32,000 bases of DNA from Aeropyrum pernix K1 (GCF_000011125.1 NC_000854.2:540001-572000), one strand, 5' to 3'. Positions 4,381 through 30,781 are shown, counted from the stretch's first letter. Notes: a model not told the origin generated them from the sequence alone. Program-made: numbers and translations.

Positions 4381-4444
4381 AGTGGCTCTAGCCCTTCCCG
4401 GATCCTCTCTGAAGCCGCCATGCGGTGGGTGTGCCTGGGTGGGG

Positions 4445-4488
4445 GTTAGAGACCCCTTTTCCGGTGTTCTGTCGAGGGCTTCTCTAAC
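4445..4488. repeat. bipartite palindrome copy 1
   Basis: Left arm GGGTTAGAGAC, right arm TTCTCTAACAC; arm-to-arm offset 36 nt. Upstream of gene 4519..4908. Confidence 0.85.
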
Positions 4489-4518
4489 ACTGCGCATACA
4501 ACACTCGGGGTGGCCTGA

Positions 4519-4908
4519 TTGGATGTTGAGTACCAGCGTCTGTACGGTATCGAGTTCAGGGTGAAGGGTGTTCGGGGGTTGTACGGAGACGGCAGGTTCG
4601 GCAAAGCTATGGCTATAGCGGCATTCCTGAGAACCCTGTCTGTTCTCTGGTTCATGCCCAGGGGTATGAGGCCCCATGTGGAGGTGTCGAAGGACTTCGG
4701 CGATGTCTGGCTCGAGTGGAGCGGCGAGGGAGAGAGGCGTGTTTACATAGAGTTTATGCTATGCGGTGAGGGTTGCGAGTACGACGCCGAGGGTGTTCTG
4801 GAGATGGTTGGGTTCGACAGCAAGACGTTCCGGAGCCTGCTAAACGCCTTCCTCAAGGAGGCTAGGCTGAGGAGTCTCCAGGCTACTGCGCCTCAGGGTG
4901 TGGGTTAG
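4519..4908 (+). CDS. hypothetical protein (129 aa)
   Basis: A TTG start lies about 24 nt downstream of a weak TATA-like GCATACA, which directly follows palindrome copy 1 (leaderless geometry). The stop abuts the next ATG (TAGATG). Confidence 0.5.
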   Translation: MDVEYQRLYGIEFRVKGVRGLYGDGRFGKAMAIAAFLRTLSVLWFMPRGMRPHVEVSKDFGDVWLEWSGEGERRVYIEFMLCGEGCEYDAEGVLEMVGFDSKTFRSLLNAFLKEARLRSLQATAPQGVG

Positions 4909-5889
4909 ATGGCCGTGCCCCCCGCCTCCCGGGCCTGCCGAGGTGGCGGGGGGCGGGGCTGGGGGTTAGAGATTGTTCTGGCCGATCTTAGGCGGGGCTT
5001 CTCTAACCTCCTCGAGTGGGAGCTCCTCAGTATAGTCGAGCTGAAGAGGCGGGGCCTAGGCCTCTCGGAGATAGCCAAGGCGGTTTACGGGACCAGCAGG
5101 AAGAGGTACAGGGTCTTCCGTATTCTGAGGCGTCTCCAGCGCATGGGTGTTCTCGACTGCCTACTCGAGGGCTCATGTTGCGCCCTGGGTGGGGAAGGCG
5201 ACGGCGGCCATGTTGCGCCTGCCGAAGATGCGCAACATGAAGGCGACGACGGGAGCGGGGAGGCGACATCGGAAGCAACATGGGAGGGGCTGCCTGGGAG
5301 GCTGGGGAGGACTCAGAAGCTTGTCATAGCGGCTCTGGCTATCCAGCTGGAGGCCACGCCCAGCATGATAGCTGCCTACGTCAACCATGCATACGGGAAA
5401 CGGGTTTCCCGGAACGCTGTGTGGCACGCCCTCAAGAGGCTGTCAGCCCGGGGTGTCGTTGAGAGGCTACCCCGGGGCTACTACAGGCTCCGCAGGCTCT
5501 CCAGCGGCATCCTGGTGGAGAACCTCAGGGTGAGGGGTCGCATGGTATGGAGCACGAGAGAGGAGGGTAGGCCAGCCACGCTGGAGGAGGCGTTAATAAC
5601 GGCGGCACTCAGAGACAGGACGTGGCCCGTGGAGCAGGCGGAACTCCTCTCACACGGCCCCCGCAAGCTGCTGGAGAAGGCAAGGCTGCTCGAAAGGCTG
5701 GGCTGGAGAATGACGGTTATGTATATAGACAGGAAGAACGGCGCCCCCAGGCTGAAGCTGGAACACAGGCTCTGGAACACACCCATACCGGCAAGGCCGG
5801 AGGAGCTATACTCATGGGTAAACCTATACAGGGAAGCCTCATCACTGGCAAGAGACCTCGCCGAACACATACTAGCGCGCACACGCTAG
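4909..5889 (+). CDS. DNA-binding protein with two (w)HTH-like domains (candidate regulator or replication/partition factor)
   Basis: LLSIVELKRRGLGLSEIAKAVYGTSRKRYRVFRILRRLQRMGVL is a LuxR/sigma-r4-like HTH. MIAAYVNHAYGKRVSRNAVWHALKRLSARGVVERLPRGYYRL is winged-helix-like. Palindrome copy 2 lies in its 5' part. Confidence 0.6.
   Translation: MAVPPASRACRGGGGRGWGLEIVLADLRRGFSNLLEWELLSIVELKRRGLGLSEIAKAVYGTSRKRYRVFRILRRLQRMGVLDCLLEGSCCALGGEGDGGHVAPAEDAQHEGDDGSGEATSEATWEGLPGRLGRTQKLVIAALAIQLEATPSMIAAYVNHAYGKRVSRNAVWHALKRLSARGVVERLPRGYYRLRRLSSGILVENLRVRGRMVWSTREEGRPATLEEALITAALRDRTWPVEQAELLSHGPRKLLEKARLLERLGWRMTVMYIDRKNGAPRLKLEHRLWNTPIPARPEELYSWVNLYREASSLARDLAEHILARTR
4965..5007. repeat. bipartite palindrome copy 2 (intragenic)
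   Basis: Left arm GGGTTAGAGAT, right arm TTCTCTAACCT; offset 35 nt. Inside the 5' part of ORF 4909..5889, read as G-L-E...F-S-N. Confidence 0.8.
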
Positions 5890-5947
5890 CCCATGTTGCG
5901 GGCGGGGGGTTCGTGGGCGCGCAATATTGGGGTTTGTGGTTGGGTTT

Positions 5948-6655
5948 TTATTGGCAGATTCTTTTTATGTTGTTTATGCGTTCGTCTAGGGTGAGGGCTG
6001 GTGCTCCTAATGTGGTTTCGTGGCTTGTGTTGATGCCTTGTTTCTTTAGGTGGTTGAGTATTTCTGCGAATATTAGTGCTGGTTTGCAGCCGGTTGTTTT
6101 TGCTGCTAGTGTGTCTGCTTCTAGTTCTTGTTCTTTTATTGTTGTTGCTTCGTATTTTGTGGTTTGTGCTAAGAGGGCGAGTGAGATTATTATTAGTAGT
6201 AGGTTGGCGGTGGGTTTTTCACTTTTCTTTGTTCTGTTTAGGTTTTTGATTGAGTCTTTGAGGCTGTCGAAGCTTATTTTGGTTAGTTGTCTTGTCGTGT
6301 AGGATGCGATGGCGTGGTTCTTCACTATATGGGCTACTTCGTGTGCTACGATGAATTTTATAACCTCTTCTGGCAGCTTATCCGCTAGTTCTCTACGGAT
6401 AAACACTATTCCGTAGCCGCCTAGTCCTATGGAGAATGCGAGCTCGTAGGCTGGTAGCTTTTCGTTCTCTTTAAACAGCGCCACTATTATTATGCCTCTT
6501 GAGCCCATTCTGGAGGCTAGTTCTTGTGCTAATGCTGTGTATTTGATGTCTAAGTTAGATAAGGCGAGGAGCAGAAGATCTATTAGCTCATCCTCCACAC
6601 TTCTTTCGCTCAACTGCCTATTCCGACCTAAGTTTTTGGGGTGCTTCATGTTCAA
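5948..6655 (-). CDS. M48-family-like Zn metallopeptidase
   Basis: The HExxH motif in FIVAHEVAHIVKNH maps to about 6329-6343. A downstream QELEADTLAAKTTG matches the ExxAD third-ligand motif of the M48 (HtpX/Ste24-like) family. The gene is AT-rich. A TATA (6689-6699, minus strand) abuts palindrome copy 3. Confidence 0.65.
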   Translation of the reverse strand: MNMKHPKNLGRNRQLSERSVEDELIDLLLLALSNLDIKYTALAQELASRMGSRGIIIVALFKENEKLPAYELAFSIGLGGYGIVFIRRELADKLPEEVIKFIVAHEVAHIVKNHAIASYTTRQLTKISFDSLKDSIKNLNRTKKSEKPTANLLLIIISLALLAQTTKYEATTIKEQELEADTLAAKTTGCKPALIFAEILNHLKKQGINTSHETTLGAPALTLDERINNIKRICQ

Positions 6656-6699
6656 GATCCACTCAGCTTTTAAAGATAGTGCGTTATACTATATAATAT

Positions 6700-6742
6700 G
6701 TTAGAGAAGGTATTACCGCTATGCTGTGAAGTTTTCTCTAAC
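6700..6742. repeat. bipartite palindrome copy 3
   Basis: Left arm ATGTTAGAGAA, right arm TTCTCTAACAC; offset 35 nt. Abuts the TATA at 6689-6699. Confidence 0.9.
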
Positions 6743-6840
6743 ACGTGCTGGTGGTGTGAGCCCGATGCGAGCCTCGATCATAAATACCGTAGCCATGTAA
6801 CATGACATCTATACTGCTTAGACTTACTCCAAATGAACCC
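6743..6840 (+). repeat. conserved noncoding module, copy A (paralogous to 9437-9535)
   Basis: Shared blocks in the same order and similar spacing after a palindrome copy: GAGCCCG, TAGCC(A/T)TGTAA, TATACTGCTTA (6810-6820 vs 9509-9519) and GACTT. Confidence 0.6.
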
Positions 6841-7021
6841 ACCCCACCTAGAGTTACGGCTTCCGGCCACGATGTAGGGAAGGGAGTTTTCCCTTGTTTC
6901 CAGCCTAGCACCCTCTGGGGAGGTTCCGATTTTATTATTCTAGGGTTTTTCTGGGTGCCTCCTATAGTATTAGGAGTCATGGTGGCAAAGGCTGCATGTT
7001 AGAGTTTCCGATTACGTCGCG

Positions 7022-8005
7022 TTGCAGAGGCCTGGGTTGAGATATGGACTGTTTCTCATTATATCCGGTGGGGCGGCCTTGGTTCTGAGCTTCAATATTG
7101 AAGGACGGTTGTCCGAAGTCCTCATGGCTATTAGTGCGACCCTAACGGCCTCGGGTGCGATAATAGCCGCCCAGTCCTTGGCTCAACTGGAGATTCAAGA
7201 AGCCTTAGAGAGCAGAAGGGAGCATAAGAAAAGACTTGATAAGTTGGCAGAGCGTATCATCAGAGGTGACGCTGGTAGGATTGTATCTAACGCTATAGGG
7301 TTAGAGAAAACAAAATTTGACATACTCTATTCAGAACCCTGCGATACACTTGAAGCATTGAAAGACGAGGAGCCTTATCTCCTGAAGGATCTAGACACTC
7401 ATCTTGAAGGTAAGCCTATAAGTAAACTGCTAGATGTTTGCAGGAAGCATAAAAAGTCGGTAAAATCTTTAGATGAAGAATTGGATGAGATAGCTTCCAG
7501 AGTAGTTGATTTTGTGGTGCAGGAACTTGGACAGCAGTATAAAATTCTGGAAACGTATGACAATTCGTTTAAAGAATTCGTTAAAACTAAAGTATTAGCA
7601 CCCACTATAAGAACCATACATAATAATGAGTCTCAATGGACGCTTGAGAATATAGTAAAAGAAGCACGTAGAATACAGGATGAAATAAAGATGGAAGTGA
7701 AATTGAAGGATACGTACAAAGGGGGTATGTCAGGCATAGATGTATACATGTACGCGTTCAAGCTAGTATATGTTAAAGCTCATTTGCCGACAGAGGGTCC
7801 AGCCGTTCGCAATAACGTTCTGAGAGTGTTTAAAGAGGTATTTGAACAAAAGCTGGCCAGCTATGCCAAAGACCTAGTAGATAAGGTGGAGGAGACTTCA
7901 TCATTAACGCGCAGTGCAGAAGAAATCAAGAAGCTAACGGTAAATCGTTTATACGAACTGAGGGAAAAAACGTATCTTCCAAACCTCTGCCAGTACGTAA
8001 AGTAA
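7022..8005 (+). CDS. hypothetical membrane protein (2 N-terminal TM helices plus a charged helical domain)
   Basis: Hydrophobic segments LFLIISGGAALVLSF and VLMAISATLTASGAIIAAQSL are followed by a Lys/Glu-rich region. AT-rich codon usage differs from the backbone. The start is uncertain (TTG 7022 or TTG 7037). Confidence 0.55.
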   Translation: MQRPGLRYGLFLIISGGAALVLSFNIEGRLSEVLMAISATLTASGAIIAAQSLAQLEIQEALESRREHKKRLDKLAERIIRGDAGRIVSNAIGLEKTKFDILYSEPCDTLEALKDEEPYLLKDLDTHLEGKPISKLLDVCRKHKKSVKSLDEELDEIASRVVDFVVQELGQQYKILETYDNSFKEFVKTKVLAPTIRTIHNNESQWTLENIVKEARRIQDEIKMEVKLKDTYKGGMSGIDVYMYAFKLVYVKAHLPTEGPAVRNNVLRVFKEVFEQKLASYAKDLVDKVEETSSLTRSAEEIKKLTVNRLYELREKTYLPNLCQYVK

Positions 8006-8225
8006 AATAGCGTTACTTCAAAGGGAGCCTTGCACTGCCTACCTATGTAAAACTTTGGTCGTCTTGGGCTCCTTGATTCATTATTTGAACATTATATATC
8101 ACACCCGTTAATCATCGTGTTATTAAAGCTTTGCCAGCTATGGTTGGAGAAGTCAGCTCATAACATACTCAACCATCTCTTTAAACCCTGGATGGGCCCT
8201 GGAGGTTCTGTCTGCTTGCCTGGCT

Positions 8226-8417
8226 GTGGTGGGGCTCGGGGCCCAGGTTAGGGTTTTGAGGGGGTTGTTGGAGCTGTATCATGCTAGGTTGCCCGGCGAT
8301 GTTAAACGCGGTATAGTGGATATGTTGGATGAAGCCGAGGCTTTGAAGGCCGTCTTGAAGCGGGAGCTGGATCCGGTTTTGCGTAGGCTCGGAGACAAGG
8401 TGTTAGAGAACGGTTAG
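8226..8417 (+). CDS. hypothetical small helical protein (63 aa)
   Basis: GC-rich islet inside the AT-rich island. The last codons (GTG TTA GAG AAC GGT TAG) run into palindrome copy 4. Coding status is uncertain. Confidence 0.3.
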   Translation: MVGLGAQVRVLRGLLELYHARLPGDVKRGIVDMLDEAEALKAVLKRELDPVLRRLGDKVLENG

Positions 8418-8445
8418 CCTGGGTTGCCTGTCCTGTTCTCTAACA
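8403..8445. repeat. bipartite palindrome copy 4
   Basis: Left arm GTGTTAGAGAA, right arm TTCTCTAACAC (perfect 11-mers); offset 35 nt. Confidence 0.9.
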
Positions 8446-8473
8446 CCCTGGAGTCTAGGGTCTAGGCATGGTG

Positions 8474-8517
8474 TTAGAGGGAGGCTTTTTGCTCCAAGCT
8501 GGATGCTTTCTATTACT
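8474..8517. repeat. bipartite palindrome copy 5 (degenerate)
   Basis: Left arm GTGTTAGAGGG; right arm TCTATTAC matches 6 of 8 positions at offset 36. Lies 29 nt after copy 4. Confidence 0.5.
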
Positions 8518-8558
8518 CATGTATGATGCATAGTATTAGATGTTTGATAAAAGAATGG

Positions 8559-9350
8559 CTAGCGTTTTTGATGGCATAGATTTAGGGCTTCCTCTGCTAT
8601 TTGTACTAAATAAGTTTTTTGAACAAATCCTACTAATTCATTTATAGTCTTACTTGTTTCTTCCGTTATAGGGTTGTCGAGTTGCTTTAGTAGGATTCTT
8701 GTTCTATCTAGTATTTCTGTTGATCCCGTAGTTTCTGCTGCTCTTTTAATGATCTCTAGAGCTTCTTTTGGTCTTGGCATTGAAAATATATCGTGTCCTT
8801 GGCTGGAGGAGGTTAGTGGCGTAATGGCTAGGGAGCGGCTTTTAATGGCCTCTGGTAGGCCCCAGCAGATGATTATATATCCTTTGAATGGATCACTATA
8901 ATTATGTTTCTTTGCTTCGGCAACAGCTTTAAGGAGCGTTAATAGCGAGGCTGCAATATCTGGCTTCATTGATTCTATTACTTGTTGTTGGGCTAATTCT
9001 CTTGTGTAATAAGCTTGATAGTATATTGCTCCTAGCACGAAGAGAGATATTATTACGCTAATTATAGTTAGCACGCCTGATGTTACATCCCATAAAGGGA
9101 TAAAGCCTTTAATATATAAAAGCCAACTTACTACAATGATGACCAAAGAGACTACAAACAAAATTACACTTACAAGCTTTGGCTTCAGATCCATCATCTC
9201 CCAGAGAATACTTAGACTATAGCAATACCATATTTTATTTTTATGGTTAGAGAAGCTTCTTATATGAGGATTGTAGTTGCCCTCTAACTCCGGATTTCTA
9301 TGCTCTCTTGTAAGGAGTTGTCTCTGCGTCTCGTGGCTCCTGTTAATCAT
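8559..9350 (-). CDS. hypothetical membrane protein (2 TM plus a soluble domain); a short form probably starts at 9197
   Basis: The TM segments LVSVILFVVSLVIIVVSWLL and VLTIISVIISLFVLGAIYY follow the internal MMDLKPK (ATG 9197). A TATA (9231-9244, minus strand) abutting palindrome copy 6 lies about 39 nt upstream of 9197. A second TATA (9381-9390) abutting copy 7 could serve the long form starting at 9350. Confidence 0.55.
   Translation of the reverse strand: MINRSHETQRQLLTREHRNPELEGNYNPHIRSFSNHKNKIWYCYSLSILWEMMDLKPKLVSVILFVVSLVIIVVSWLLYIKGFIPLWDVTSGVLTIISVIISLFVLGAIYYQAYYTRELAQQQVIESMKPDIAASLLTLLKAVAEAKKHNYSDPFKGYIIICWGLPEAIKSRSLAITPLTSSSQGHDIFSMPRPKEALEIIKRAAETTGSTEILDRTRILLKQLDNPITEETSKTINELVGFVQKTYLVQIAEEALNLCHQKR
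9246..9288. repeat. bipartite palindrome copy 6
   Basis: Left arm TGGTTAGAGAA, right arm CCTCTAAC (7 of 8); offset 35. Abuts the minus-strand TATA at 9231-9244. Confidence 0.75.
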
Positions 9351-9393
9351 GGTTGATGGACGTGGCGGTGTCGGGGTGGGTATATAATAAGGT

Positions 9394-9436
9394 GTTAGAG
9401 AATGTTAGGGCACTATGCTGAGGAACCTTCTCTAAC
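9394..9436. repeat. bipartite palindrome copy 7
   Basis: Perfect GTGTTAGAGAA / TTCTCTAACAC; offset 35. Abuts TATATAATAA at 9381-9390. Confidence 0.9.
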
Positions 9437-9535
9437 ACCTACTGTTGGCGCGAGCCCGTGTTGAGTCTTGATCTATCTATGAATGCTATAGCCTTGTAAT
9501 GCATGGTTTATACTGCTTATGACTTCCGCCTCTGA
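9437..9535 (+). repeat. conserved noncoding module, copy B (paralogous to 6743-6840)
   Basis: See copy A. Both modules are preceded by TATA plus a palindrome, and both end near AGTCATGGTG (6975-6984 and 9563-9572) leading into a GTTAGAG half-site or full site. Confidence 0.6.
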
Positions 9536-9571
9536 GTTTTAACTACTTAAAGCCCTAACTCCAGTCATGGT

Positions 9572-9614
9572 GTTAGAGAATGTTTTAGGCGGTTTTGAAC
9601 AGTCGTTCTCTAAC
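9572..9614. repeat. bipartite palindrome copy 8
   Basis: Perfect GTGTTAGAGAA / TTCTCTAACAC; offset 35. Followed by TTATTATA at 9619-9626. Confidence 0.9.
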
Positions 9615-9700
9615 ACCCTTATTATACGTTTCAGGTTGCTCCGTGCTGTTTCCAGTCTTCATCTAGTATGTTGCATGGCGCATATAGTATGTAGGGTGGG

Positions 9701-9979
9701 TTGGTGTCTGTGCATGTGGATAGGTTTGTAGCAGTAGTGGATTATATTATAGATATTGTTGCGGGTGTTTTGATGGCGTTCTTCATGGTGGTGTTTGGCT
9801 GGTTTCTGAAGGGAGCATATGAAGTGCATAGGGCTGGTGCTTGCGATGGGCTCTGCATGAATCTATTTGTTCTGAGCCTGATAGGGTTCATGCTTGCTAC
9901 CGCGCTTTCCCTCTTCTTTTCTAGGTCAATACTGAGGAAGCTAGGGGGTGCAAGTGATGGTCCTAGAGTATGTGCGTAG
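9701..9979 (+). CDS. hypothetical small membrane protein (92 aa)
   Basis: Two or three hydrophobic helices (IVAGVLMAFFMVVFGWFL, LFVLSLIGFMLATALSLFF). First gene of the long plus-strand block, downstream of palindrome copy 8 and a TATA. Confidence 0.5.
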   Translation: MVSVHVDRFVAVVDYIIDIVAGVLMAFFMVVFGWFLKGAYEVHRAGACDGLCMNLFVLSLIGFMLATALSLFFSRSILRKLGGASDGPRVCA

Positions 9980-10436
9980 GCTTGTTGGGGCTAGGGAGAA
10001 GCCTGATCCCCGTGAGCTTTTGGGTTTGGTGGAGGCGGTTGATGCTGGGCAGCAGCAGGGTGGTGCGCCCCCGTTCGACTTGTATACGTTGCTTGAGGAC
10101 GAGAAGGTTGGGCGCGAGCTGTGGCCCTATATTCTGGGGTTTGTGGCGAGGGATACGAAGCTCACCTACTTTACGGAGAGGGATGAGGAGTACCTGTTCT
10201 GGAAGATCGAGGCGATAGCGACTAAGATAGAGATGGCGCTGAACTCGCAGACCCCGCCGCCCGACCGGTTCCCCAGGGTTGAGGATTACGTGAAGGTTGT
10301 GGAGGCGCAGCGGCTGCTGGCGGACAACCTGAGGGTGCTGATGCTGGCGGCCGTGAGGCGCTCCACACTGGGCTTCGAGAGGAGGCTGCAGGCGATGCGC
10401 CACTTCGTCTTCTCCTACTCGGACAGGAGGTTCTAG
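9957..10436 (+). CDS. hypothetical protein
   Basis: Track ORF 9948..10436. ATG 9957 is preceded by the SD-like GGGGGTG. It overlaps the upstream gene's end, giving an operon-style arrangement. Confidence 0.5.
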   Translation: MVLEYVRRLVGAREKPDPRELLGLVEAVDAGQQQGGAPPFDLYTLLEDEKVGRELWPYILGFVARDTKLTYFTERDEEYLFWKIEAIATKIEMALNSQTPPPDRFPRVEDYVKVVEAQRLLADNLRVLMLAAVRRSTLGFERRLQAMRHFVFSYSDRRF

Positions 10437-10441
10437 GGGCC

Positions 10442-11401
10442 TTGATGGGCGCGCTCATGCTGCTGGGCATGGCCCTCGGGGGGCTGGCGGGCCTGGGGGC
10501 TGGCTACCTGCTCTACCCCTCGAGGCCCGACCTGGCCCTCCTGGCGGGGCTGGGCGCCGGTTCGGCCCTGGGCTGGGCTATGGGGTTCTTCTACTGGAGC
10601 TTCGGGGTTCCACCGGCGTTCAAGCAGGCTATGCGGGCTGCTAGAACCGGGTTCCTTATTGTGGCTGTGGGGGCGGACAAGAAGGCCCGCCTCCTCCCGG
10701 GGTTCAGCGACGGCTTCGTGGTCCGCCCGGCGCCTAGGCCCTACAGGGATAAGTACGCGTGGGCGGCGGACGGGGAGAGCAGCTACCCTATCCACGGGGG
10801 CCGGGGGACCCAGCTCCTCGTAACATTCATGGGCTACCCCTTCCCCCTGGAGGCCGGGAAGGCGGCGGCCGTCTCGAAGTTCAGGGAGAGGGGGTTCAGG
10901 AGCATTGAGGACCTGAAGACGGCGGTGGAGCTGCCTACTGTGGAGGAGATTGAGGCCCGGATGCGGGAGCTGGAGGCGGCTAGGGCCTCTATAGAGAAGA
11001 TGGACGAGGGGGAGGTTAGGCGGCTCTACGGCGAGGATAAGCGCCAGCTTCTCGCTGAGGTTGATAGGGAGCTGGAGCGGCTGGAGAGGGTTAGAGAACT
11101 CGTTAAGGAGTACGGCGGCGGCAGTTCTCTAACCGTTAACGTGGACGGCGCCACGGTGAGGGCCTCGGACCTCATCTCCTACCTCGTCTGGCGCCACCAT
11201 CCGAGCGAGATCGACAGGATAGTGAAGGCTGAGACCAACGCGGTGCTCTCCAGGCTCTCCGCTGTGGACTGGCTGAGGCAGCTCCTGCCGGTCATCATAG
11301 TGACGGGTATGTTCGTGCTGGGTATCATAGTGGTGGTGTACATGCTGAAGGGTGGCGGGCCCCCGGCGCCGGTCGAGTCCATAGCTATAGGGGGTGGGTA
11401 G
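10442..11401 (+). CDS. hypothetical membrane protein (N- and C-terminal TM segments, central coiled region)
   Basis: N-terminal Gly/Ala/Leu-rich TM helices, a central Glu/Arg-rich helix, and a C-terminal TM (LLPVIIVTGMFVLGIIVVVYML). It contains palindrome copy 9 in frame. Confidence 0.55.
   Translation: MMGALMLLGMALGGLAGLGAGYLLYPSRPDLALLAGLGAGSALGWAMGFFYWSFGVPPAFKQAMRAARTGFLIVAVGADKKARLLPGFSDGFVVRPAPRPYRDKYAWAADGESSYPIHGGRGTQLLVTFMGYPFPLEAGKAAAVSKFRERGFRSIEDLKTAVELPTVEEIEARMRELEAARASIEKMDEGEVRRLYGEDKRQLLAEVDRELERLERVRELVKEYGGGSSLTVNVDGATVRASDLISYLVWRHHPSEIDRIVKAETNAVLSRLSAVDWLRQLLPVIIVTGMFVLGIIVVVYMLKGGGPPAPVESIAIGGG
11090..11133. repeat. bipartite palindrome copy 9 (intragenic, in frame)
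   Basis: Left arm GGGTTAGAGAA, right arm TTCTCTAACCG; offset 36. Read as V-R-E...S-L-T in ORF 10442..11401. Confidence 0.85.
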
Positions 11402-11404
11402 GCT

Positions 11405-11809
11405 TTGGGCTACAGCAGGTTCAGGACTGTTAAGAGCCTGCAGCCCGGCTTCATAGCCGTCATCTCCGAGGTGGCCCTGGAGGCTGTTAAGGCTAAGATC
11501 GCCGCCTCGAGGAACCCCTTCGCCGCCTACGACTACGCCGAGGCCCTGGACGCCCTGATATCCGTTCTGCCGCCGGAGGCCAAGCAGGACATTACCAAGC
11601 GGCTCGGGGTTGACGTGGATATTGTCGTCGAGGAGGCCCTCGGTAGCTGCTCGAGGGATCCGAACGCGCATCCCTACGTAAACGAGGCCAGATGCCTCCG
11701 GAGGGTCAAGGAGGACCTAGACAAGCTGCTCCGAGTTGTTTTCGACGTAGCCCACAGGAGGGGCTTGTTCGTGGTTGAGAGGGAGGTGCTGTACGGTGGG
11801 GAGGCGTAG
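11405..11809 (+). CDS. hypothetical protein (134 aa)
   Basis: ORF packed 3 nt after the previous stop, with the same codon bias. No recognisable domain. Confidence 0.5.
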   Translation: MGYSRFRTVKSLQPGFIAVISEVALEAVKAKIAASRNPFAAYDYAEALDALISVLPPEAKQDITKRLGVDVDIVVEEALGSCSRDPNAHPYVNEARCLRRVKEDLDKLLRVVFDVAHRRGLFVVEREVLYGGEA

Positions 11810-12668
11810 GATAGAGGATGTCCTTGAGATACTCGAGTCCGGGGATCTAGGTGAGATAGACGGGGTGGCGGAGAACGCGAGGGAGTTCTATGAGAGGCCT
11901 GAGGAGGCCGAGGAGTCCGGCGTGGGCTGGAGCATCCTCGCCGGGTGGATGGAGTCGGCGTTCAGGACCGGCGGGTTCAACTCGGTTATAGTCTACGGGA
12001 AGCAGGGGGCCGGTAAGTCCGTGTACGCCATTAAGGTTGTCTACGACCTGCTCCGCAGGCTGGGCGTGGTGCCCGCTAGCTCGACCAGCCGCATAGTCTT
12101 CAAGCGGTACATGGTTTTCTCCGCGTCCCACTTCATCGGGAAGATCAAGAACGCCCGGGGGGCTAGGCTGCCAGCGGTGATATGGGACGATGCGGGGGTC
12201 CACGGGGGGTCCTACCTGTTCTTCACCGACGTGTTCCTGGCTAAGGCTTTGGGCGACCTCTTCAGGGTCGCCAGGACCAGGGTGGCCAACATAATCTTCA
12301 CAACCCCCAGCCCCCGGGACCTGCTGAAGCCGTTTCGCTCCTACGACACGATTATAGTCTATGTGCACGAGATGGACGAGGTTTGGTCGAGGGCACACAT
12401 CTACAAGATGAGGCTCCTGCCCTCCGGCGATGTACGGGTTCAGAAGAAGGCTATGGAGGACTTCCGGAGGAGGCTTAGGACCTACGACGAGTACATCAGG
12501 ATTAGGGATAGGTATGTTGACGAGGCTATTGACGCTTTGGAGGAGCTTATGCTGGTCAAGTATGCTGAGAGGGCTATGAAGAGGGCCAGGCTGTTTGAGA
12601 AGGCTGCAAGGCTGGGGGGCTGGAGGGGGTTTGAGGCAGAGGACCAAGGATCCTATCGGGACGATTAG
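11775..12668 (+). CDS. P-loop NTPase (AAA/DnaA-like or packaging-type ATPase)
   Basis: Walker A is VYGKQGAGKSVYA (about 11994-12020). A Walker B-like AVIWDDAG lies at about 12174-12194. The start is uncertain (TTG 11775 or GTG 11796). Confidence 0.7.
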   Translation: MRGRCCTVGRRRIEDVLEILESGDLGEIDGVAENAREFYERPEEAEESGVGWSILAGWMESAFRTGGFNSVIVYGKQGAGKSVYAIKVVYDLLRRLGVVPASSTSRIVFKRYMVFSASHFIGKIKNARGARLPAVIWDDAGVHGGSYLFFTDVFLAKALGDLFRVARTRVANIIFTTPSPRDLLKPFRSYDTIIVYVHEMDEVWSRAHIYKMRLLPSGDVRVQKKAMEDFRRRLRTYDEYIRIRDRYVDEAIDALEELMLVKYAERAMKRARLFEKAARLGGWRGFEAEDQGSYRDD

Positions 12669-12706
12669 GATCTCCCAGCTACTGTTAAACCTGGTGGAGC
12701 AGATGT

Positions 12707-12748
12707 GTTAGAGAATGTTTTCTCGTGATGGTCTAGTTGTTCTCTAAC
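12707..12748. repeat. bipartite palindrome copy 10
   Basis: Perfect GTGTTAGAGAA / TTCTCTAACAC; offset 34. Followed by TTTATAAA at 12755-12762. Confidence 0.9.
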
Positions 12749-14215: not shown

Positions 14216-14230
14216 GGGTGGTGTGGTTGC

Positions 14231-24170: not shown

Positions 24171-24830
24171 ATGTGGAAGGAGATCCGTTTCTGGCCTGAC
24201 GAGGGCTCTGGTCCTTGCACCTTGGGCTTCCCCGTTGTTAGAGCTGTGGACGGCGCCTACGGCGTAATAACTGCTGGCCACTGCAACGACTAGGAGGACG
24301 GCGGGTCGAACTACGAGTGGGTAATGCACCAGCCCGAGAAGGATGGCGACAAGAATGAGATAGGCCCGGTGGAAGCTGCGGCCTGTGTTGTGGATGCCAC
24401 CCTAGTAATTTACAGTAATGTTTATCCAGGGGTTCTGCATATATATGATGATGGCTCGTACGAGACGCTAGAGGTGACGGATTGGATAGCCTGGGAGGAC
24501 GTGCCCAATTACCTCTACGACGTCGTGTTTTACAAGACTGGTAAAACCACGGGAACGACGGCTATGCGTATGGAGGGGTATATGTCTGAGGTTCAGTCCG
24601 ACTTATACCCATGCAGGGTCTATAAGGCTATATTCGCAGATGTCGTTGCTGCCTTGTCAGGCGACAGCGGATCCCCCGCGTACCGGAAGCTGGGCGGCCA
24701 CGCAGTACTGCTGGGCTATGTAGTGGCTAACTCTGATGACTGGGATGGGATAGTGAGGACTATGATACTTAGCGTCGATAACTTGTGGGGCGCCTTTGGG
24801 GTGAGGCCTTATGTGTGCCAGTGGTGCTAG
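24171..24830 (+). pseudogene. streptogrisin/alpha-lytic-type S1 serine protease interrupted by an in-frame TAG (24291-24293)
   Basis: The upstream frame reads MWKEIRFWPDEGSGPCTLGFPVVRAVDGAYGVITAGHCND-TAG, giving the Cys-x-x-GF and TAGHC His motifs. The same frame continues ...EDGGSNYEWVMHQPE...VVDATLVIY (Asp)...LSGDSGSPAY (Ser, agc at 24666-24668). The hydrophobic stretch upstream (LIVTLFLLFPLFPLVGGC) lacks a canonical start codon. Confidence 0.7.
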
Positions 24831-25827
24831 GGCCCTGCTCCTCACGGTTCTAGCCCTCCCCCTGCTGGCTTTAGTGGCTGGCGCCGAGGCCCCAACACTG
24901 GTTGGCGAGTCTGGCCCCTTCGACGTCTACAGGGTTGGCGAGGGCTTCTACGTAGCCCTGATCGACGATGGGTTCTTCGACGAGGTTAGGGGGAGGTTCT
25001 ACCTGTACTGGGCCGGGTCTCCGGAGGAGCACTCCAGGCTGACCGAGTCTCCGTTCACCCCGGTGGTTGAGGATCTGGGGGCCTCCCTTGGCCCGGGCGA
25101 GGAGGGGGCTATAGGGCCCTACAGCCGCGAGGAGGACTTCGACTGCAGGTGGGGCGTCGCCCCTGACGGGCGGTGGTGGGTCAGGATCAACGGGGAGAAG
25201 CGTTATGTGTCGGAGCCCGAGGCTTCCAGGGCCCTGCGTGGCCTCGGTGTGGAAGCCTCCGCATTTAGCGTGGGCAGGCTCGTAGTATTCGATAGGCAGA
25301 ACGGCGTGATAACTGAGCGGCTCGACACGGTGGCTAAGGTTTACGTGCACGGGCCCCGGGACGCCCTCCTAGATCCTAGGCTGGGCGAGGCTGTTAGGGA
25401 GGCTGTTTTGAGGGACTGCGGAGTGCCTGTCAATGTGGTTGTGGCGGTGGAGGAGGCGTGGAGCCTCAAGAAGTGGGCCCTGAGGGAGGAGACTTATGAG
25501 AGGATCTCGACAGCCTGGGATAGGCTCGGCCTCCCCCTCTACGGCGTGGGGGGCATGCTGGGCTTCCCGCTCCTCGTCGGCGTGGACGGCCTGGAGATGA
25601 GGAGCAGGGGTGTGACCCTAGACTGGGTCCTCTCCGTCCTGGACAGGGAGATACCCCCGGGTCTGGCCGTGCTGGTAGTGGTTAGGGACTACAAGCCCAC
25701 GGAGGGCTCGCTACTACCCGGCCAGGCCGGTGGCAGCGGCGTGGGCCCCGAGGCCGGGGTAGCGGCGGCGGCCCTCGCGGTGGCCGTGGCGGCGGCCCTT
25801 GTAGCGTTCAAGCGCCGTAGGACATAG
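24811..25827 (+). CDS. secreted, C-terminally anchored protein (338 aa)
   Basis: Signal peptide (ALLLTVLALPLLALVAGAEA) and a C-terminal TM (VAAAALAVAVAAALVAF) followed by KRRRT. It overlaps the protease gene end by 20 nt. Confidence 0.6.
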   Translation: MCASGARALLLTVLALPLLALVAGAEAPTLVGESGPFDVYRVGEGFYVALIDDGFFDEVRGRFYLYWAGSPEEHSRLTESPFTPVVEDLGASLGPGEEGAIGPYSREEDFDCRWGVAPDGRWWVRINGEKRYVSEPEASRALRGLGVEASAFSVGRLVVFDRQNGVITERLDTVAKVYVHGPRDALLDPRLGEAVREAVLRDCGVPVNVVVAVEEAWSLKKWALREETYERISTAWDRLGLPLYGVGGMLGFPLLVGVDGLEMRSRGVTLDWVLSVLDREIPPGLAVLVVVRDYKPTEGSLLPGQAGGSGVGPEAGVAAAALAVAVAAALVAFKRRRT

Positions 25828-25894
25828 CCGTGGCGGAAGTCGATTATCACGGTTTTTGTAAGCACATTATCTATAAACTCTATTTTCGGGGGTT

Positions 25895-26224
25895 GTGGGC
25901 GGCTTGTCTGTTCTGAGGCTTACCTGGTATAAGGTTCTACCCCTGTATATGCTGGGCGCTGTTTTGGGTTACCTGGTTTTCTCTGCTGTTCTGTCCATAG
26001 GGTCTGGCAGCAGTATGTTCGACCCTCTTTGGCTGTATATCGTGTTGGTGACGGCCTTCCTCTCCCCCCTCTCCATGCTTGTCTGGGGGTTCCTCTCCCT
26101 GACGGCCTGGCTTCTCGATAGGAAGCTGGGCCCCTACGCCATGTTCGTGCCCCTTGTTGCCGGGGCTGTTATGGGCCCATTAACCCTCTACATACTCGTC
26201 CGCGGCCTTCTAGTCTATCCCTAG
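25895..26224 (+). CDS. small integral membrane protein (3-4 TM)
   Basis: TATA (ATCTATAAAC, about 25869-25880) lies about 25 nt upstream of the GTG start (leaderless geometry). The protein is hydrophobic throughout. Confidence 0.55.
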   Translation: MGGLSVLRLTWYKVLPLYMLGAVLGYLVFSAVLSIGSGSSMFDPLWLYIVLVTAFLSPLSMLVWGFLSLTAWLLDRKLGPYAMFVPLVAGAVMGPLTLYILVRGLLVYP

Positions 26225-26253
26225 CCCTCCCACACCCCGCGGCGCATATCTTT

Positions 26254-26676
26254 GTGGTGCGGTGTGGCTTGCTGGGCTGGCTTAGGAGGAAGGCGGGGGA
26301 GCTCAGGAGGAGGCGTAGGGTTCGCTCGAGGATAGTCTCCCATCTCGTGAGCAAGGGCGTAGCCAGGAGGGATGCAGAGAGGCTCGCCCCCCTTGTTATG
26401 AGGGGCGAGCTGACGGTCTCGGAGGCCGTATCCCTGGGTAAGAGGCTGGGCCGGGATAGGGTTGCCAGGGTGGAGCGTCGGCTGAGGGGCGAGGAGCGCC
26501 GCAAGAACGATAGTAAGGGCGGGGATAGGTTCCTCGGGCTCTCACGGTCAATACTGGGCTTCACGCTCGGAACCTCTGGGAGCCAGCCTATCGACCTCTT
26601 CGGCGGCCAGACGGGGGAGTCTAAGCGCCGGAGGAGGCGGGGCGGCCGGGAGCCCGGGCAGCCTCCCCTGTGGTGA
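26254..26676 (+). CDS. Arg-rich basic protein (140 aa)
   Basis: RRKAGELRRRRRVRSR near the N-terminus and ESKRRRRRGGRE near the C-terminus. The start is uncertain (GTG 26254 or TTG 26269). Confidence 0.45.
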   Translation: MVRCGLLGWLRRKAGELRRRRRVRSRIVSHLVSKGVARRDAERLAPLVMRGELTVSEAVSLGKRLGRDRVARVERRLRGEERRKNDSKGGDRFLGLSRSILGFTLGTSGSQPIDLFGGQTGESKRRRRRGGREPGQPPLW

Positions 26677-26705
26677 GAGCATCATCCTCTTGGGGCGGGG
26701 TGTGG

Positions 26706-27041
26706 ATGGCGGTGAGGCTTAGGAGGAGGCGCCGCCGGGGCTCCCGGTGCCCTGTGCCACGGGAGAACCCCCGGACGGGCCGTAAGACCAAGTATCTGGG
26801 GCACAGGGTTAGGGATGTGGGGGGCTCGGGGCTCGATAGCCCCCGGGAGTTCAGGGGTATACTGAGGGAGGTTACGAGGGACTACAGGGAGGGGTGCATA
26901 TCTAAGCGGACGGCGCGGGGGAGGCTCCTGCTGCTCTACAGGCTGACTTACCCTCGCTATAACAGGAAGGCCAGGCGTATCCCGGCCTCGACGAGGAGGA
27001 GGCTTAGGGAGGAGATAAGGCGGGCGATGGAGAGCCTATAA
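26706..27041 (+). CDS. Arg-rich basic protein (about 111 aa)
   Basis: Track ORF 26670..27041. ATG 26706 (MAVRLRRRRRRGSR) is preferred, with the G-rich SD-like GGGGCGGGG upstream. Confidence 0.45.
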   Translation: MAVRLRRRRRRGSRCPVPRENPRTGRKTKYLGHRVRDVGGSGLDSPREFRGILREVTRDYREGCISKRTARGRLLLLYRLTYPRYNRKARRIPASTRRRLREEIRRAMESL

Positions 27042-27060
27042 CCACCCATTTAACCGGGCG

Positions 27061-27103
27061 GTTAGAGAAGCACGATCCGGCTACTGTCTTGACGTTCTCT
27101 AAC
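27061..27103. repeat. bipartite palindrome copy 13
   Basis: Left arm CGGTTAGAGAA, right arm TTCTCTAACAC; offset 35. Followed by ATTTAT at 27112-27117 and the TTG start at 27135. Confidence 0.9.
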
Positions 27104-27134
27104 ACCTCCGCATTTATGCTCTGGGGAGGGCTGG

Positions 27135-28360: not shown

Positions 28361-28408
28361 ACCCCCCAGGGTCTCCCGGGGTGGATTCCGAACTTGGCGG
28401 CGGCGTGT

Positions 28409-28450
28409 GTTAGAGAATAAGGCTAAATTCCTTACAGCATTTTCTCTAAC
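28409..28450. repeat. bipartite palindrome copy 14
   Basis: Perfect GTGTTAGAGAA / TTCTCTAACAC; offset 34. Followed by a C/A-only tract. Confidence 0.9.
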
Positions 28451-28525
28451 ACCCCACACACCCCCGACCAGCCACGACACACATACACCCAACCCCCCGC
28501 CACACACAGGCCGGGCGGAAGCACA

Positions 28526-28717: not shown

Positions 28718-28889
28718 GCTATAAAATATTGAAGATTATGAATTCGAATGTACGAGTGTCTGTTTGTGTTTTTAATTATCTGAGTTTCACTAACGTATAT
28801 TTTTCTTTGGGCTGTTCGATAGGGCGCATGTGGAATACGGATAAGCGCCTATGCTTGGTGGACTGCTTTAATATCTAGGTGATGACAAG

Positions 28890-29357
28890 TTGAGTTCAAT
28901 GATTCGTCATAGGGAATCATACATACTGTCGCTGATAGTAGGGGTTCTCTCCGCATCTATACTGTGGTTGGCTTCTAAGGGGGTCATCAGCCCTAGTGTT
29001 TATCCTATAATGGCATCTGTCTCAGCCACACTCTTGGGCTTTGTATTCACGGCGGAACAGTTAGCAATAATGATATTGGCCAACGAAAATAGTACAGTGG
29101 CTAAAATCCTGCGGAAACACAACCCAGGGTATATTAACGAGCTTCTCGGGCTAGCAGATCTTACCATGGTTTCACTATTCTCCACGGCTATAGTAAGTGG
29201 AGCAGCGTCCATCTTCGCTTTCTATCCAAAGTTTATTGCTTATACAACAATGTTCTTGGTGGGGGTGAGCATGATGTCATTACTTATCTTAATTCTTAAC
29301 GTGCAGAAACTCTATCATGATCATTTTAATGTAGACCTTTCCTCGAATAACCGGTAG
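28890..29357 (+). CDS. integral membrane protein (4 TM)
   Basis: AT-rich gene with four hydrophobic helices. A TATA (CTTTAATATCT, about 28866-28876) suggests a leaderless start at the in-frame ATG 28899. Confidence 0.55.
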   Translation: MSSMIRHRESYILSLIVGVLSASILWLASKGVISPSVYPIMASVSATLLGFVFTAEQLAIMILANENSTVAKILRKHNPGYINELLGLADLTMVSLFSTAIVSGAASIFAFYPKFIAYTTMFLVGVSMMSLLILILNVQKLYHDHFNVDLSSNNR

Positions 29358-30376
29358 GATTCGCGTATCAACTCGCTGTTTTTCAGAGCCAATTCTTTAA
29401 GAATGTTTAGTGAGGCAGTGGTGTCAGTGCTTCTGAGGTATCTCCCACCACTTCGTGCTTTTGGTATGCTAACTTCCCTAAATACCAAGGCATCCTCTAC
29501 AAGGTCGACTACTCTTCTAGGGCTTCCAAAGGTTATCTTGAAACGTTGGAGGGATTCTTCTCCTAATTCTTCTCTTATTGAATTAAACAGCTCTAGCAAC
29601 TCATCTATCGTGAAATCTAACTCCTGATCCTTACCCCTTCCAGCGTGCTGTATAGCTTCGTATAACTGTCCTCTTATCTTGGTTATATCTATACCCAGCT
29701 TTTCTAACAGCATGTCTATGGTCCTTTGGTTTGTGAGCCGGGCTTTATTTGATATTTTGAGTTTTATATCGATCTGTTTTATTGTAGAATCACTATACAG
29801 TTTTAGTAGCTCTTCAGTGTCTGGTCTATAGAGTTGCCTAATGGCTATTCTGATTTTGTCACAGTTCTTCAACAATACATGTATCTTTTGCGGCCCAATT
29901 CTCTGGCAATATTCTTGGGCCGCTCCTCTGAATAACGTGCTGAGGATTCCATGTTTTGGAACAAAGCTAGTTACTTCTACAAGGGCTATACCTGGCTTAA
30001 TCAAAATCATATGAGCATACTCATAGAGATCCTCATCATCGCTGAGCTTTTTAGAAAGGGACGCATGTCTTCGACTTTTTCTGTCATAGAAATGTGACAA
30101 ACCTTCATGCCTAAGATATCCGTAAACGATACCTAGGTATTTTTCTCCATTAGCTGGAAGTTCTTTTATATCTGTTATTATGGGGATTTTTTCTGGCGAG
30201 AAGGGATTGTTATTGGAGTTCAGCGGATACGAGGTGGATTGGGCGTACTTCACCACATCTGTAATAAATTGATAGTTCAGCTTGATAACTTTTTTATCTT
30301 CAGTGTAGGCTTCAGCGATAACTCCATAAGCATAAATGTTCCTTTTGTATTCGTGGGAGGCCAAGTGAATCACCAT
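29321..30376 (-). CDS. hypothetical 351-aa protein (AT-rich cargo ORFan)
   Basis: Long minus-strand ORF whose 3' end overlaps the convergent 4-TM gene by 37 nt. ATG 30376 lies about 27 nt downstream of TTAAAT (30401-30406, minus strand), which abuts palindrome copy 15. No domain recognised by eye. Confidence 0.6.
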   Translation of the reverse strand: MVIHLASHEYKRNIYAYGVIAEAYTEDKKVIKLNYQFITDVVKYAQSTSYPLNSNNNPFSPEKIPIITDIKELPANGEKYLGIVYGYLRHEGLSHFYDRKSRRHASLSKKLSDDEDLYEYAHMILIKPGIALVEVTSFVPKHGILSTLFRGAAQEYCQRIGPQKIHVLLKNCDKIRIAIRQLYRPDTEELLKLYSDSTIKQIDIKLKISNKARLTNQRTIDMLLEKLGIDITKIRGQLYEAIQHAGRGKDQELDFTIDELLELFNSIREELGEESLQRFKITFGSPRRVVDLVEDALVFREVSIPKARSGGRYLRSTDTTASLNILKELALKNSELIRESYRLFEERSTLK

Positions 30377-30408
30377 GGAACATTCGAACCTCGTGCTACA
30401 ATTTAAGT

Positions 30409-30452
30409 GTTAGAGAATAATCAGCGACAGATTAGGTCGATATTTCTCTAAC
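30409..30452. repeat. bipartite palindrome copy 15
   Basis: Perfect GTGTTAGAGAA / TTCTCTAACAC; offset 36. Abuts the minus-strand TTAAAT at 30401-30406, upstream of gene 29321..30376. Confidence 0.9.
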
Positions 30453-30781
30453 ACGTATCATAAGCCCTAGAATTCAGTAATATTTCAAAGAGGACGCTGT
30501 ATTACCAGCTATGGCTTAGCTTTTGTATTAACTTTATGATAAGATAAACATGAGCGCTTAAATGCCGCACAGCTAGACAGCCGTCTTAACTTTGTATGAA
30601 GCTATAAATCAGACTTACCATGACAAAGGCTGGCCGCTCTGTAAGGACCTCTGTCCCCTTTAAGCTTTCTTTAATTAACTGAAAAATGATTGCCAGACTT
30701 GGCGGCTTGAGCGGGTAAACCTTTTGATAATAAAAACGCTTTAAGATGTGTTATTTTCCTCTTTAATACCTACAGAAATGC

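Follow-up and report, generated by a model that had tools for sequence, protein, structure and literature searches.

The 32-kb stretch of Aeropyrum pernix K1 DNA analysed here (the window; GCF_000011125.1 NC_000854.2:540001-572000) carries the provirus APSV1 (100% identity to NC_028268), and the 'integrated element' that a first-pass annotation of the bare sequence had delimited is thus an already known provirus. Position 1 of APSV1 corresponds to window position 4129 and the end of the window to APSV1 position 27872. Dispersed over 26 kb of this virus are 15 copies of a bipartite palindrome, i.e. of two short inverted arms separated by a spacer of nearly constant length, and our data show that this motif is a cis-element specific to the APSV1-type lineage, which is conserved in position and under nucleotide-level purifying selection with a fixed spacing of its arms. 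It is a real, strongly selected, lineage-specific element of unusual bipartite architecture, which most likely constitutes a dispersed operator system.

The core of the motif is GTTAGAGAA-N(25/26)-TTCTCTAAC, with a full spacer range of N23-26. An exact search for GTTAGAGA-N24-30-TCTCTAAC (8+8) gave 13 matches in the window versus none in 100 dinucleotide-preserving shuffles, and a mismatch-tolerant scan recovered all of the 15 copies that had been listed in the first-pass annotation, the two degenerate ones included. Its description of these copies was reproduced with respect to the perfect 11-nt arms on both sides of six copies, the exact right arm TTCTCTAACAC in 11 copies, the core offset of always 34-36 nt and the AATGTT(T/A) after the left arm of copies 7, 8 and 10; its core coordinates were also correct, except that copy 4 is at 8402-8444 (not 8403-8445) and copy 5 at 8473-8516 (not 8474-8517). 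APSV1 and APSV1-like contigs together contain 69 distinct copies, 53 of which are perfect at 9+9. Their spacers are 26 nt (n=34), 25 nt (n=29), 24 nt (n=5) or 23 nt (n=1) long, which results in an overall motif length of about 41-44 bp, and in the related loci left-to-right pairs of arms with at most one mismatch per arm were spaced by 23 nt (n=1), 24 nt (n=5), 25 nt (n=25) or 26 nt (n=29), with no other distance below 73 nt. It is this confinement of the spacing to 23-26 nt that underlies our definition of the core. The arms are near-invariant and have no internal dyad, information stays below 0.4 bit at every position of the spacer, and weaker preferences exist for G or T before the core, for A or C after it and for G or C at both ends of the spacer.

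That the motif is confined to the element had already been proposed, and this confinement now extends to DNA both inside and outside of APSV1. The rest of the virus (positions 26327-38049; 11.7 kb) contains no copy, with weak matches occurring only at chance level, and copies are also absent from the host flank in the window (1-4128) and from APOV1, a second provirus of the same host. Single arms occur as well: a lone perfect left arm GTTAGAGAA lies inside orf5 (window 7300-7308; virus 3172-3180), where it has no partner arm at a distance of 23-27 nt, and other unpaired arms in APSV1, each with one mismatch, comprise four left and two right ones. Beyond the window, the divergent intergenic DNA between orf44 and orf45, the latter encoding a helix-turn-helix (HTH) protein, contains a weak look-alike, GTTATAGAG-N25-TACTCTAGA (2+3 mismatches; APSV1 34097-34139), which is near chance level and might be a diverged operator of another regulator.

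A generic repeat would be expected at similar density throughout the host chromosome or in unrelated genomes. What we found instead is that the host DNA scanned and unrelated genomes are devoid of the motif save for chance singletons, and that the arms are kept across related elements. In an 18-base scan, for which each prokaryotic species was represented by a single genome (A. pernix K1 was not among the genomes returned), 46 loci were found. By our own estimate, the bacterial matches, which were singletons, roughly correspond to a chance number; the multi-copy matches were all on contigs of metagenome-assembled genomes from Acidilobaceae or Desulfurococcales, and these contigs encode homologues of APSV1 orf2, orf3, orf6, orf11, orf12, orf14, orf17, orf18, orf44-47 and orf52 as well as of the integrase (tblastn). 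Four further APSV1-like contigs with the motif came from a metagenome scan, and richer relatives were reached by protein look-ups, i.e. L183 with four copies, L184 with 11 perfect copies in 13.9 kb and L186 with seven copies in 5.4 kb (L numbers are used here to designate individual loci). An element in Aeropyrum camini SY1 (L188; AP012489.1 400927-422174, element at 10001-17300) has four copies, with none in about 13 kb of host flank; it encodes homologues of the integrase, orf1, orf3, orf6, orf9 and orf29 and gave no match to the virion-block genes of APSV1. Similarly, the host flank upstream of the integrase gene of L189 is free of copies. IMG/VR contributed 40 matching loci, none of which has an APSV1 protein homologue. 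These are singletons save for two related phage contigs (L031 10045-12045 and L039 9194-11194), in which an unrelated TCTAACGTTAGA repeat built on the palindrome TCTAAC-GTTAGA produces an accidental match.

Within the APSV1-type lineage, copies recur at the same positions. One is found at the 5' end of orf3 in eight elements (APSV1, L066, L079, L055, L043, L183, L184 and L188), where it keeps the reading frame in some relatives and is out of frame in others. Another lies about 50-57 nt upstream of orf14 in four elements (57 nt in APSV1 and 50-51 nt in L085, L183 and L184), and a third about 100 nt upstream of orf9 in L139, L183 and L184, with copy 8 of APSV1 being upstream of orf8 and orf9. 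Intragenic copies are shared as well, in orf10 by APSV1, L184 and L186 and in orf23 by APSV1 and L184 (12435-12478), whose spacers are recognizably homologous. When APSV1 is compared with its relatives by blastn, copies, including copy 10, appear as isolated islands of identity in otherwise diverged intergenic DNA. Two relatives have a copy at the end of orf18, and the stop codon of the 929-aa orf18 homologue in L184 is the TAG within the left arm (GT-TAG-AGAA; L184 10498-10506). One of the frames of each arm contains a stop codon (TAG, TAA), and this restricts the arm frames and spacer lengths available to intragenic copies.

The first-pass annotation had concluded from APSV1 alone that selection acts on the arms and their spacing and not on a copied block. 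Alignment of related elements, which it had suggested as a check, bears this out, with orthologous sites keeping their arms while the spacers drift. Six homologues of orf10 share ...RV(R/K)ELV..GGG..L..VDGA without any indel. In APSV1, L184 and L186, whose ORF10 proteins are 58-67% identical, the arms have the common spelling GTT AGA GAA ... TCT CTA AC, and five of the six arm codons that specify the same amino acid are identical, versus 44-59% elsewhere in the gene. In L183, by contrast, the amino acids are kept but are spelled GTC AGG GAG ... CTC TCC, i.e. none of 4-5 codons is identical and the motif is lost, again without an indel; for orf16, the comparison of APSV1 with L183 reveals the same contrast, with related amino acids and different codons. 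Selection at the nucleotide level thus holds the arms on top of ordinary coding sequence, which means that these copies are not inserted blocks. This bears directly on the idea that a miniature mobile element, such as a miniature inverted-repeat transposable element (MITE), a repetitive extragenic palindrome (REP) or an element resembling the Rickettsia palindromic elements (RPE), has spread through the virus genome. Such an element would come with terminal inverted repeats, in many copies and, as with RPE, in part at in-frame positions within genes, all of which is seen here. However, the interior of the motif is unconserved, no transposase was detected and there are no target-site duplications, with identical flanks being no commoner than expected by chance; moreover, orf10 and orf16 orthologues with and without arms align indel-free, and the stretch that would correspond to the 'interior' is coding sequence conserved among all of the six homologues of orf10. 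Spreading of this kind has next to no probability, and a MITE-, REP- or RPE-type origin is excluded by the lack of a common interior, of target duplications and of indels at orthologous sites.

On their left side, copies in GC-rich or coding DNA also share a flank rich in G, which approximates GCTGG(G/A)G(A)GG in front of GTTAGAGA and is asymmetric, nothing comparable being found on the right. In the window, it is found at 4433-4444, 4953-4964, 11078-11089, 14708-14719 and 20773-20784, and comparable runs of G precede the orf3-proximal copy in L066, L079, L183, L184, L137 and L188. This flank could be a second half-signal, but could also merely reflect a shared coding context (RL.R-VRE).

Inverted arms may be read either as duplex DNA or as the stem of a hairpin, and a hairpin or cruciform at the DNA or RNA level was among the three roles originally envisaged. 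With a 9-11-bp stem and a 24-26-nt loop, such a structure might act in processing, stability, termination or replication. The arms are perfectly complementary and are paired in predicted structures at 37°C; in addition, the palindrome extends inwards by at least 3 bp in five of 47 copies versus 0.7 expected, which is the only observation in favour of pairing beyond the arms themselves. However, not one of the 23 altered arm-pair positions in the 69-copy set is compensated (18 became mismatches and five became G-T), which is not what conservation of a stem would produce, nor would a stem need a loop length that is constrained to ±1. Furthermore, the folding energy is hardly affected by shuffling of the spacers, with a mean z of -0.39, and in many copies the loop is wholly open. 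A. pernix grows at about 90-95°C, and in folds computed for 90°C with RNA parameters, four of the five copies tested are unfolded at a minimum free energy of 0.0, with the fifth, which has an extended stem, reaching only -0.8 kcal/mol (folds with DNA parameters at this temperature were disregarded, as they are nonsensical extrapolations consisting of isolated pairs). In Rfam, the sole match in the window is a tRNA. With uncompensated changes, unstructured loops and an RNA hairpin predicted to be melted at the growth temperature, a structural role is very unlikely. Rather, uncompensated arm changes combined with a spacing fixed to ±1 indicate that the arms are read on double-stranded DNA, and we conclude from these patterns that they would be recognized as duplex, with the ±1 spacing being what a protein that measures a distance along B-DNA is expected to impose.

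The placement of the copies connects them to promoters. Ten of the 15 APSV1 copies are intergenic, although only 11% of this region is non-coding (P=5e-7), and five are inside genes. In many cases, a TATA-like box is found 3-9 nt past an arm and the start codon about 30-55 nt past the same arm, with those of orf36, orf7, orf2 and orf32 being about 30-42 nt away. It is the left arm that faces the minus-strand genes orf4, orf7 and orf36, and the right arm that faces orf2, orf8, orf14 and orf32. The same promoter layout is seen in relatives, for instance upstream of orf14 in L085, L183 and L184. Overall, 23 of 47 copies have a TATA-like box at a distance of 2-10 nt from the outer side of an arm, compared with 15.6 ± 3.0 upon random placement. 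Some copies are also arranged in arrays, for which two registers were found. In the first, a unit repeat of 70-71 bp generates alternating arms every ~35 bp (window 8400-8518; L186 844-1027); in the window, this 71-bp unit repeat follows from copy 5 being located only 24 nt past copy 4. In the second, units are 4-5 nt apart, with an extra lone right arm in front (L184 1731-1835). Paralogy over ~110 bp (78% identity) was found between the promoter regions of orf4 and orf7, both of them minus-strand genes (window 6660-6810 versus 9354-9504), which hold copies 3 and 7; the block in common extends from the TATA-like box across the motif and on to ~60 bp past the distal arm (GAGCCCG...GATC...TAGCC.TGTAA).

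Of the three roles originally proposed, an operator or other protein-binding site fits these data best. Specifically, we favour the reading, at a probability of about 0.5, that the copies are sites on duplex DNA for a symmetric, virus-encoded regulator, with ORF3 being the leading candidate. What we infer here is that a protein binds to the motif, which protein this is and that binding affects transcription. A single DNA-binding domain might read each 9-bp arm (GTTAGAGAA), and a two-fold symmetric protein, i.e. a dimer or a higher oligomer, might clamp two arms that are 34-35 bp apart from centre to centre, with the central 25-26 bp being either bent or touched without sequence preference. As there is no dyad within an arm, one DNA-binding domain per arm is the simplest assumption and a symmetric dimer is likelier than the 'dimer of dimers' of the first-pass annotation, a detail for which the 9-bp arms provide no support. 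At promoters, the nearer arm is 3-9 bp from the TATA-like box. In archaeal promoters, the TFB recognition element (BRE) is expected about where this proximal arm sits, and occupancy of the site could thus gate the recruitment of TBP and TFB. Copies within orf3, orf10, orf16 and orf23 and those between cistrons might function as roadblocks or as extra cooperative anchors, similar to the phage stoperators discussed below. In this way, a 26-kb block for replication and morphogenesis could be placed under a single switch, from which a 12-kb block with the integrase and small regulators would be exempt. As to the sign of regulation, repression is our guess, given that the provirus is silent. Regulation rather than packaging is also favoured by the defective A. 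camini element, in which no structural genes were found and which keeps its four copies.

ORF3 is a candidate by virtue of its domains and of its co-occurrence with the motif. It gives weak Pfam HTH matches (N-terminal HTH_23, IclR) and has a central winged helix, and its invariant residues are located in both of the predicted HTH domains. An AlphaFold2 model has a mean predicted local distance difference test (pLDDT) score of 56 and is confident only at residues 36-87 and 134-194; its fold matches are to regulators of the IclR, PadR, MarR and Fur types, and these are weak (best E ~2e-3, template modelling score ~0.2). A homologue of ORF3 is present wherever the matching part of a motif-bearing element is available, and there is always a copy at the 5' end of its gene. 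L191 and L192, the integrases of which are ~60% identical to that of APSV1, have no orf3 and no motif copies at all. That the motif is missing despite such similar integrases means that the integrase is not its partner. The gene content of L191 and L192 is otherwise different, with a NucS-like nuclease, a trypsin-like protease and a distant DnaA-like ATPase, and the integrase thus is common to unrelated element backbones. ORF14, with its N-terminal HTH-like segment, is an alternative candidate. In this short segment it resembles ORF3 (E=0.015 in a single comparison), and no match to ORF14 was found in the A. camini element, which keeps four copies. A third candidate regulator, ORF37, has a weak ParG-like Pfam match, with its assignment as ribbon-helix-helix-like coming from the sequence pattern; in the annotation, ORF45 is an HTH protein and ORF48 a CopG-like repressor.

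Several observations weigh against an operator read by ORF3. A spacing of 34-35 bp, which corresponds to ~3.3 helical turns, is odd for a simple dimer and would require DNA bending or an extended protein. The association with TATA-like boxes is moderate and concerns only about half of the copies, the remaining ones being intragenic or intercistronic without a promoter-like flank. The structural model of ORF3 is poor, and its fold matches are mostly to a generic winged helix. L180 encodes an intact, 57%-identical ORF3 homologue next to a broken motif with a 34-nt spacer and the right arm TTCTCTAGC, and L085 carries copies but no orf3 match in the 8 kb of it that were examined. Finally, the K1 DNA outside APSV1 that was scanned directly is limited to the host flank in the window and APOV1. 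L180 itself (GCA_035615675.1 WWDZ01000015.1, 8700-15300) appears to be a decayed, APSV1-like remnant in a Desulfurococcales chromosome, with orf9, orf12 and orf34 being present as fragments and the 10 kb on either side being without an integrase, and its ORF3 homologue may be a domesticated regulator.

Two further explanations have to be weighed against this operator reading. One assumes that distant copies are paired by a bridging protein and thereby serve architecture or maintenance, i.e. the folding, compaction, partitioning, replication or packaging of viral DNA, with any effect on transcription being secondary. This is conceivable, although with odds well below even. It would account for the dispersal of copies over 26 kb, including genes without an evident promoter, for the arrays with arms of alternating orientation every 35 bp and for the clustering of five copies in 1.2 kb of low-GC DNA, and it would connect to a Hi-C map of A. 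pernix K1 at 3 kb resolution, in which 19 chromosomal loops are reported to emanate from APSV1 (PMC10769869). Yet, the last 12 kb of the virus are free of copies, which is odd for packaging or general compaction, four good copies persist in the A. camini element in the absence of structural genes, and many copies directly abut TATA-like boxes. Moreover, the published map has a resolution of 3 kb and its loops are not tied to any motif (PMC10769869); their coordinates are absent from the supplements of that study, and loops to other loci need partner sites, none of which were found outside of the element in the DNA scanned. In a more specific and rather doubtful version, a virus-encoded bridging protein might tie together the 15 sites, and perhaps other chromosomal loci, such that the 26-kb lytic block is looped and silent and opens upon induction. 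If this were true, the host, which naturally lacks SMC proteins, would harbour a 'mini-chromatin' programmed by sequence, and the 19 loops reported for APSV1 (PMC10769869) would be given a molecular basis.

The other explanation takes up the recombination or module-exchange sites that had been considered from the start. Copies would then be recombination sites or short-homology hot spots, at which accessory genes are gained, lost or swapped between related viruses in a manner resembling cassette exchange. Small accessory genes are indeed often bracketed by copies, as is the case for orf2, orf6 and a 156-aa gene in L184, and to this extent the 'cassette junctions' of the first-pass annotation are loosely correct. 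Among these variable genes, orf6 homologues have copies on both sides in L043 (two homologues), L186 and L188, and in both APSV1 and L066 copies 1 and 2 enclose orf2. L183, which has a single copy and no orf2, resembles APSV1 minus orf2 between these two copies: the spacer of its orf3-proximal copy is homologous to that of copy 1 and stands beside the flank of orf3. Copies are also densest in the variable low-GC region. The compositional borders, however, are elsewhere, with none of those in the GC mosaic (virus ~1780, 5800, 24600 and 26800 in a 200-bp profile) coinciding with a copy, and the nucleotide homology between APSV1 and L183 begins exactly at the start codon of orf9 rather than at a copy (blastn). 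Furthermore, copies in conserved genes are fixed in place across lineages, L191 and L192 do without the motif in spite of their 60%-identical SSV-type integrases, and no second recombinase was detected. Bracketing of small genes is equally expected if each gene carries its own motif-bearing promoter, as a gene that brings along its own regulated promoter yields the same picture. Taken together, a role in recombination is weakly supported at most and seems unlikely. The operator reading thus remains the one that we prefer, and the individual copies are compiled, together with the candidate regulator genes and the attachment end of the provirus, in table 1.

Table 1. Copies of the bipartite motif, candidate regulator genes and attachment end of APSV1 (coordinates refer to the window; motif copies are given with 11-nt arms).
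Feature	Position	Strand	Description
copy 1	4443-4490		GGGTTAGAGAC-N26-TTCTCTAACAC; in the orf1-orf2 intergenic region, with the orf2 start 29 nt downstream
copy 2	4963-5009		5' end of orf3, annotated codons 19-34
copy 3	6698-6744		left arm abuts the TATA-like box of minus-strand orf4 (M48 protease), 43 nt from the orf4 start
copy 4	8400-8446		perfect; left arm codes for the last codons of orf6
copy 5	8471-8518		degenerate, 2+3 mismatches on the 11-mers; starts 24 nt after copy 4
copy 6	9244-9290		degenerate; in the 5' part of minus-strand orf7
copy 7	9392-9438		perfect; left arm abuts the TATA-like box of minus-strand orf7, ATG 42 nt away
copy 8	9570-9616		perfect; right arm followed by CCTTATTATA, upstream of orf8 and orf9
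copy 9	11088-11135		in orf10, codons 216-232, peptide RVRE...SSLT
copy 10	12705-12750		perfect; 57 nt upstream of orf14; right arm followed by ATCCTTTATAAA
copy 11	14718-14765		in orf16, codons 156-172, peptide RVRE...GSLT
copy 12	20783-20830		in orf23, codons 264-280, peptide VRD...VSLT
copy 13	27059-27105		intergenic, 30 nt upstream of orf32; followed by GCATTTAT
copy 14	28407-28452		perfect; intergenic, 74 nt upstream of orf34
copy 15	30407-30454		perfect; left arm abuts the TATA-like box of minus-strand orf36, ATG ~33 nt away from this arm; final copy ahead of the motif-free block
possible decayed 16th copy	8143-8185		GTTGGAGAA-N25-CTCTTTAAA; upstream of orf6; weak, 1+3 mismatches
orf3	4909-5889	+	326 aa; two predicted HTH domains and a C-terminal alpha/beta domain; near the integrase gene
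orf14	12807-13472	+	221 aa; alternative candidate binder; N-terminal HTH-like segment
orf37	30844-31044	+	66 aa; ribbon-helix-helix-like candidate regulator; first gene of the motif-free block
SSV-type integrase	2774-4132	+	at the tRNA-Val attachment end; element gene without a link to the motif
tRNA-Val	2607-2684		attachment end; adjoins the integrase gene

Copy 10 has left a trace in the annotation of the virus, as the annotated orf13 of APSV1 (38 codons, minus strand, window 12665-12781) is largely this copy read on the opposite strand and is probably not a real gene. The other APSV1 genes are nearly all annotated as hypothetical, and searching ~30 proteins of the element against Pfam and PHROG yielded hardly anything besides the integrase, the M48 protease and a DnaA-like ATPase; upstream of the integrase gene are host genes such as that for a TRM5/TYW2 methyltransferase. 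APSV1 has an overall GC content of ~62% and includes two low-GC blocks (~40-45% GC) at window positions 5930-9930 and 28730-30930 (virus ~1800-5800 and 24600-26800), the composition of which suggests an origin in low-GC relatives such as L043, L046 and L051 (41-43% GC). The first of these blocks contains or adjoins seven of the 15 copies, but its compositional borders do not coincide with copies.

Since the genes of APSV1 and its relatives are almost all without known function, the motif provides a handle on how a provirus is silenced and induced at ~90°C. By marking promoters as well as several genes of the replication and structural block, it outlines a probable regulon and a short list of potential regulators headed by ORF3. 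Scanning for it is also of practical use, as it located APSV1-like elements in hydrothermal metagenomes and in Aeropyrum camini. Moreover, the architecture itself is unusual: two 9-bp arms flank an information-free centre of 25-26 bp, the length of this centre is kept within ±1 bp, and even coding sequence is subject to the arrangement. Only a small set of DNA recognition modes has been described from archaeal viruses so far, and working out how such a site is read would enlarge it by a new one. In the literature searched, no description of the arm sequences in this context was found, with a mention in the original description of APSV1 being possible; our best judgement is that the motif has not been described before.

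How, then, does this motif compare to known systems? With its short conserved terminal boxes, its variable centre and gene-sized units near a tyrosine recombinase, this imperfect palindrome recalls the attC sites of integrons. These have an RYYYAAC box at the 5' side, a GTTRRRY box at the 3' side, a variable centre, a length of ~57-141 bp and extrahelical bases, and terminate gene cassettes next to an IntI-type integrase. In all 69 copies of the APSV1 motif, however, the order of the boxes is reversed (5'-GTTAGAGAA...TTCTCTAAC-3' on both strands), with GTT being located farthest to the left and AAC farthest to the right; in addition, its length is fixed, extrahelical bases are absent, copies are found in conserved genes and the integrase is of the SSV type. 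Identity with attC is therefore rejected on account of reversed box order, fixed length, intragenic copies and no integrase link. A CRISPR array or solitary CRISPR repeats were likewise rejected, as the arms are inverted rather than direct and the units are dispersed over 26 kb.

Among regulatory sites, two short inverted arms with a long non-specific spacer are also found in those of protein p4 of phage phi29 (CTTTTT-N15-AAAATG), at which a dimer bends the DNA and activates or represses depending on its position relative to the promoter. In APSV1, by contrast, the spacer comprises 25-26 rather than 15 bp and there are at least 15 sites instead of a handful; p4 belongs to a bacterial system, and there is no homology. 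The IclR family includes TtgV (PDB 2xro), a tetramer of which covers an operator of ~42 bp. This is similar to the total size of the APSV1 site (43-44 bp), and the best fold matches of ORF3 are to this family, with a winged helix and an alpha/beta domain. In IclR operators, however, palindromic sub-sites are recognized along the length, which differs from two short arms with an information-free 25-bp centre, and the fold matches of ORF3 are weak and obtained with a model of low confidence.

By type of virus, the operators of F55 in the spindle-shaped crenarchaeal virus SSV1, a fusellovirus, are the nearest relative, with APSV1 and the fuselloviruses sharing an SSV-type integrase and a DnaA-like ATPase. 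F55 sites are tandem direct repeats. [quoted passage not shown] The sites of F55 are thus restricted to a few promoters, whereas those of APSV1 have inverted arms, a 25-26-bp spacer and a genome-wide distribution that extends into genes; also the sequences differ, and the TAGAG that is common to the F55 site and the APSV1 arm is probably a coincidence.

By function, the nearest analogue is the system of operators and stoperators of Cluster A mycobacteriophages, which have an L5-type immunity repressor, i.e. many sites that are thought to allow a single repressor to block both initiation and elongation of transcription across lytic genes (PMC9283540). As in these phages, many copies of one site, in our case 15 over 26 kb, are distributed across the genome of a temperate virus, at promoters as well as between and within transcription units, and relatives of APSV1 are no different in this respect. 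Stoperators, however, are asymmetric single 13-mers, which are bound by a monomer and oriented with transcription (PMC9283540), whereas the APSV1 site is a symmetric pair of 9-mers that are 25-26 bp apart, is therefore without orientation and has no sequence relationship to stoperators. Moreover, the host of APSV1 is an archaeon with TBP/TFB-dependent promoters, and a roadblock role of intragenic and intercistronic copies would be assigned here by analogy.

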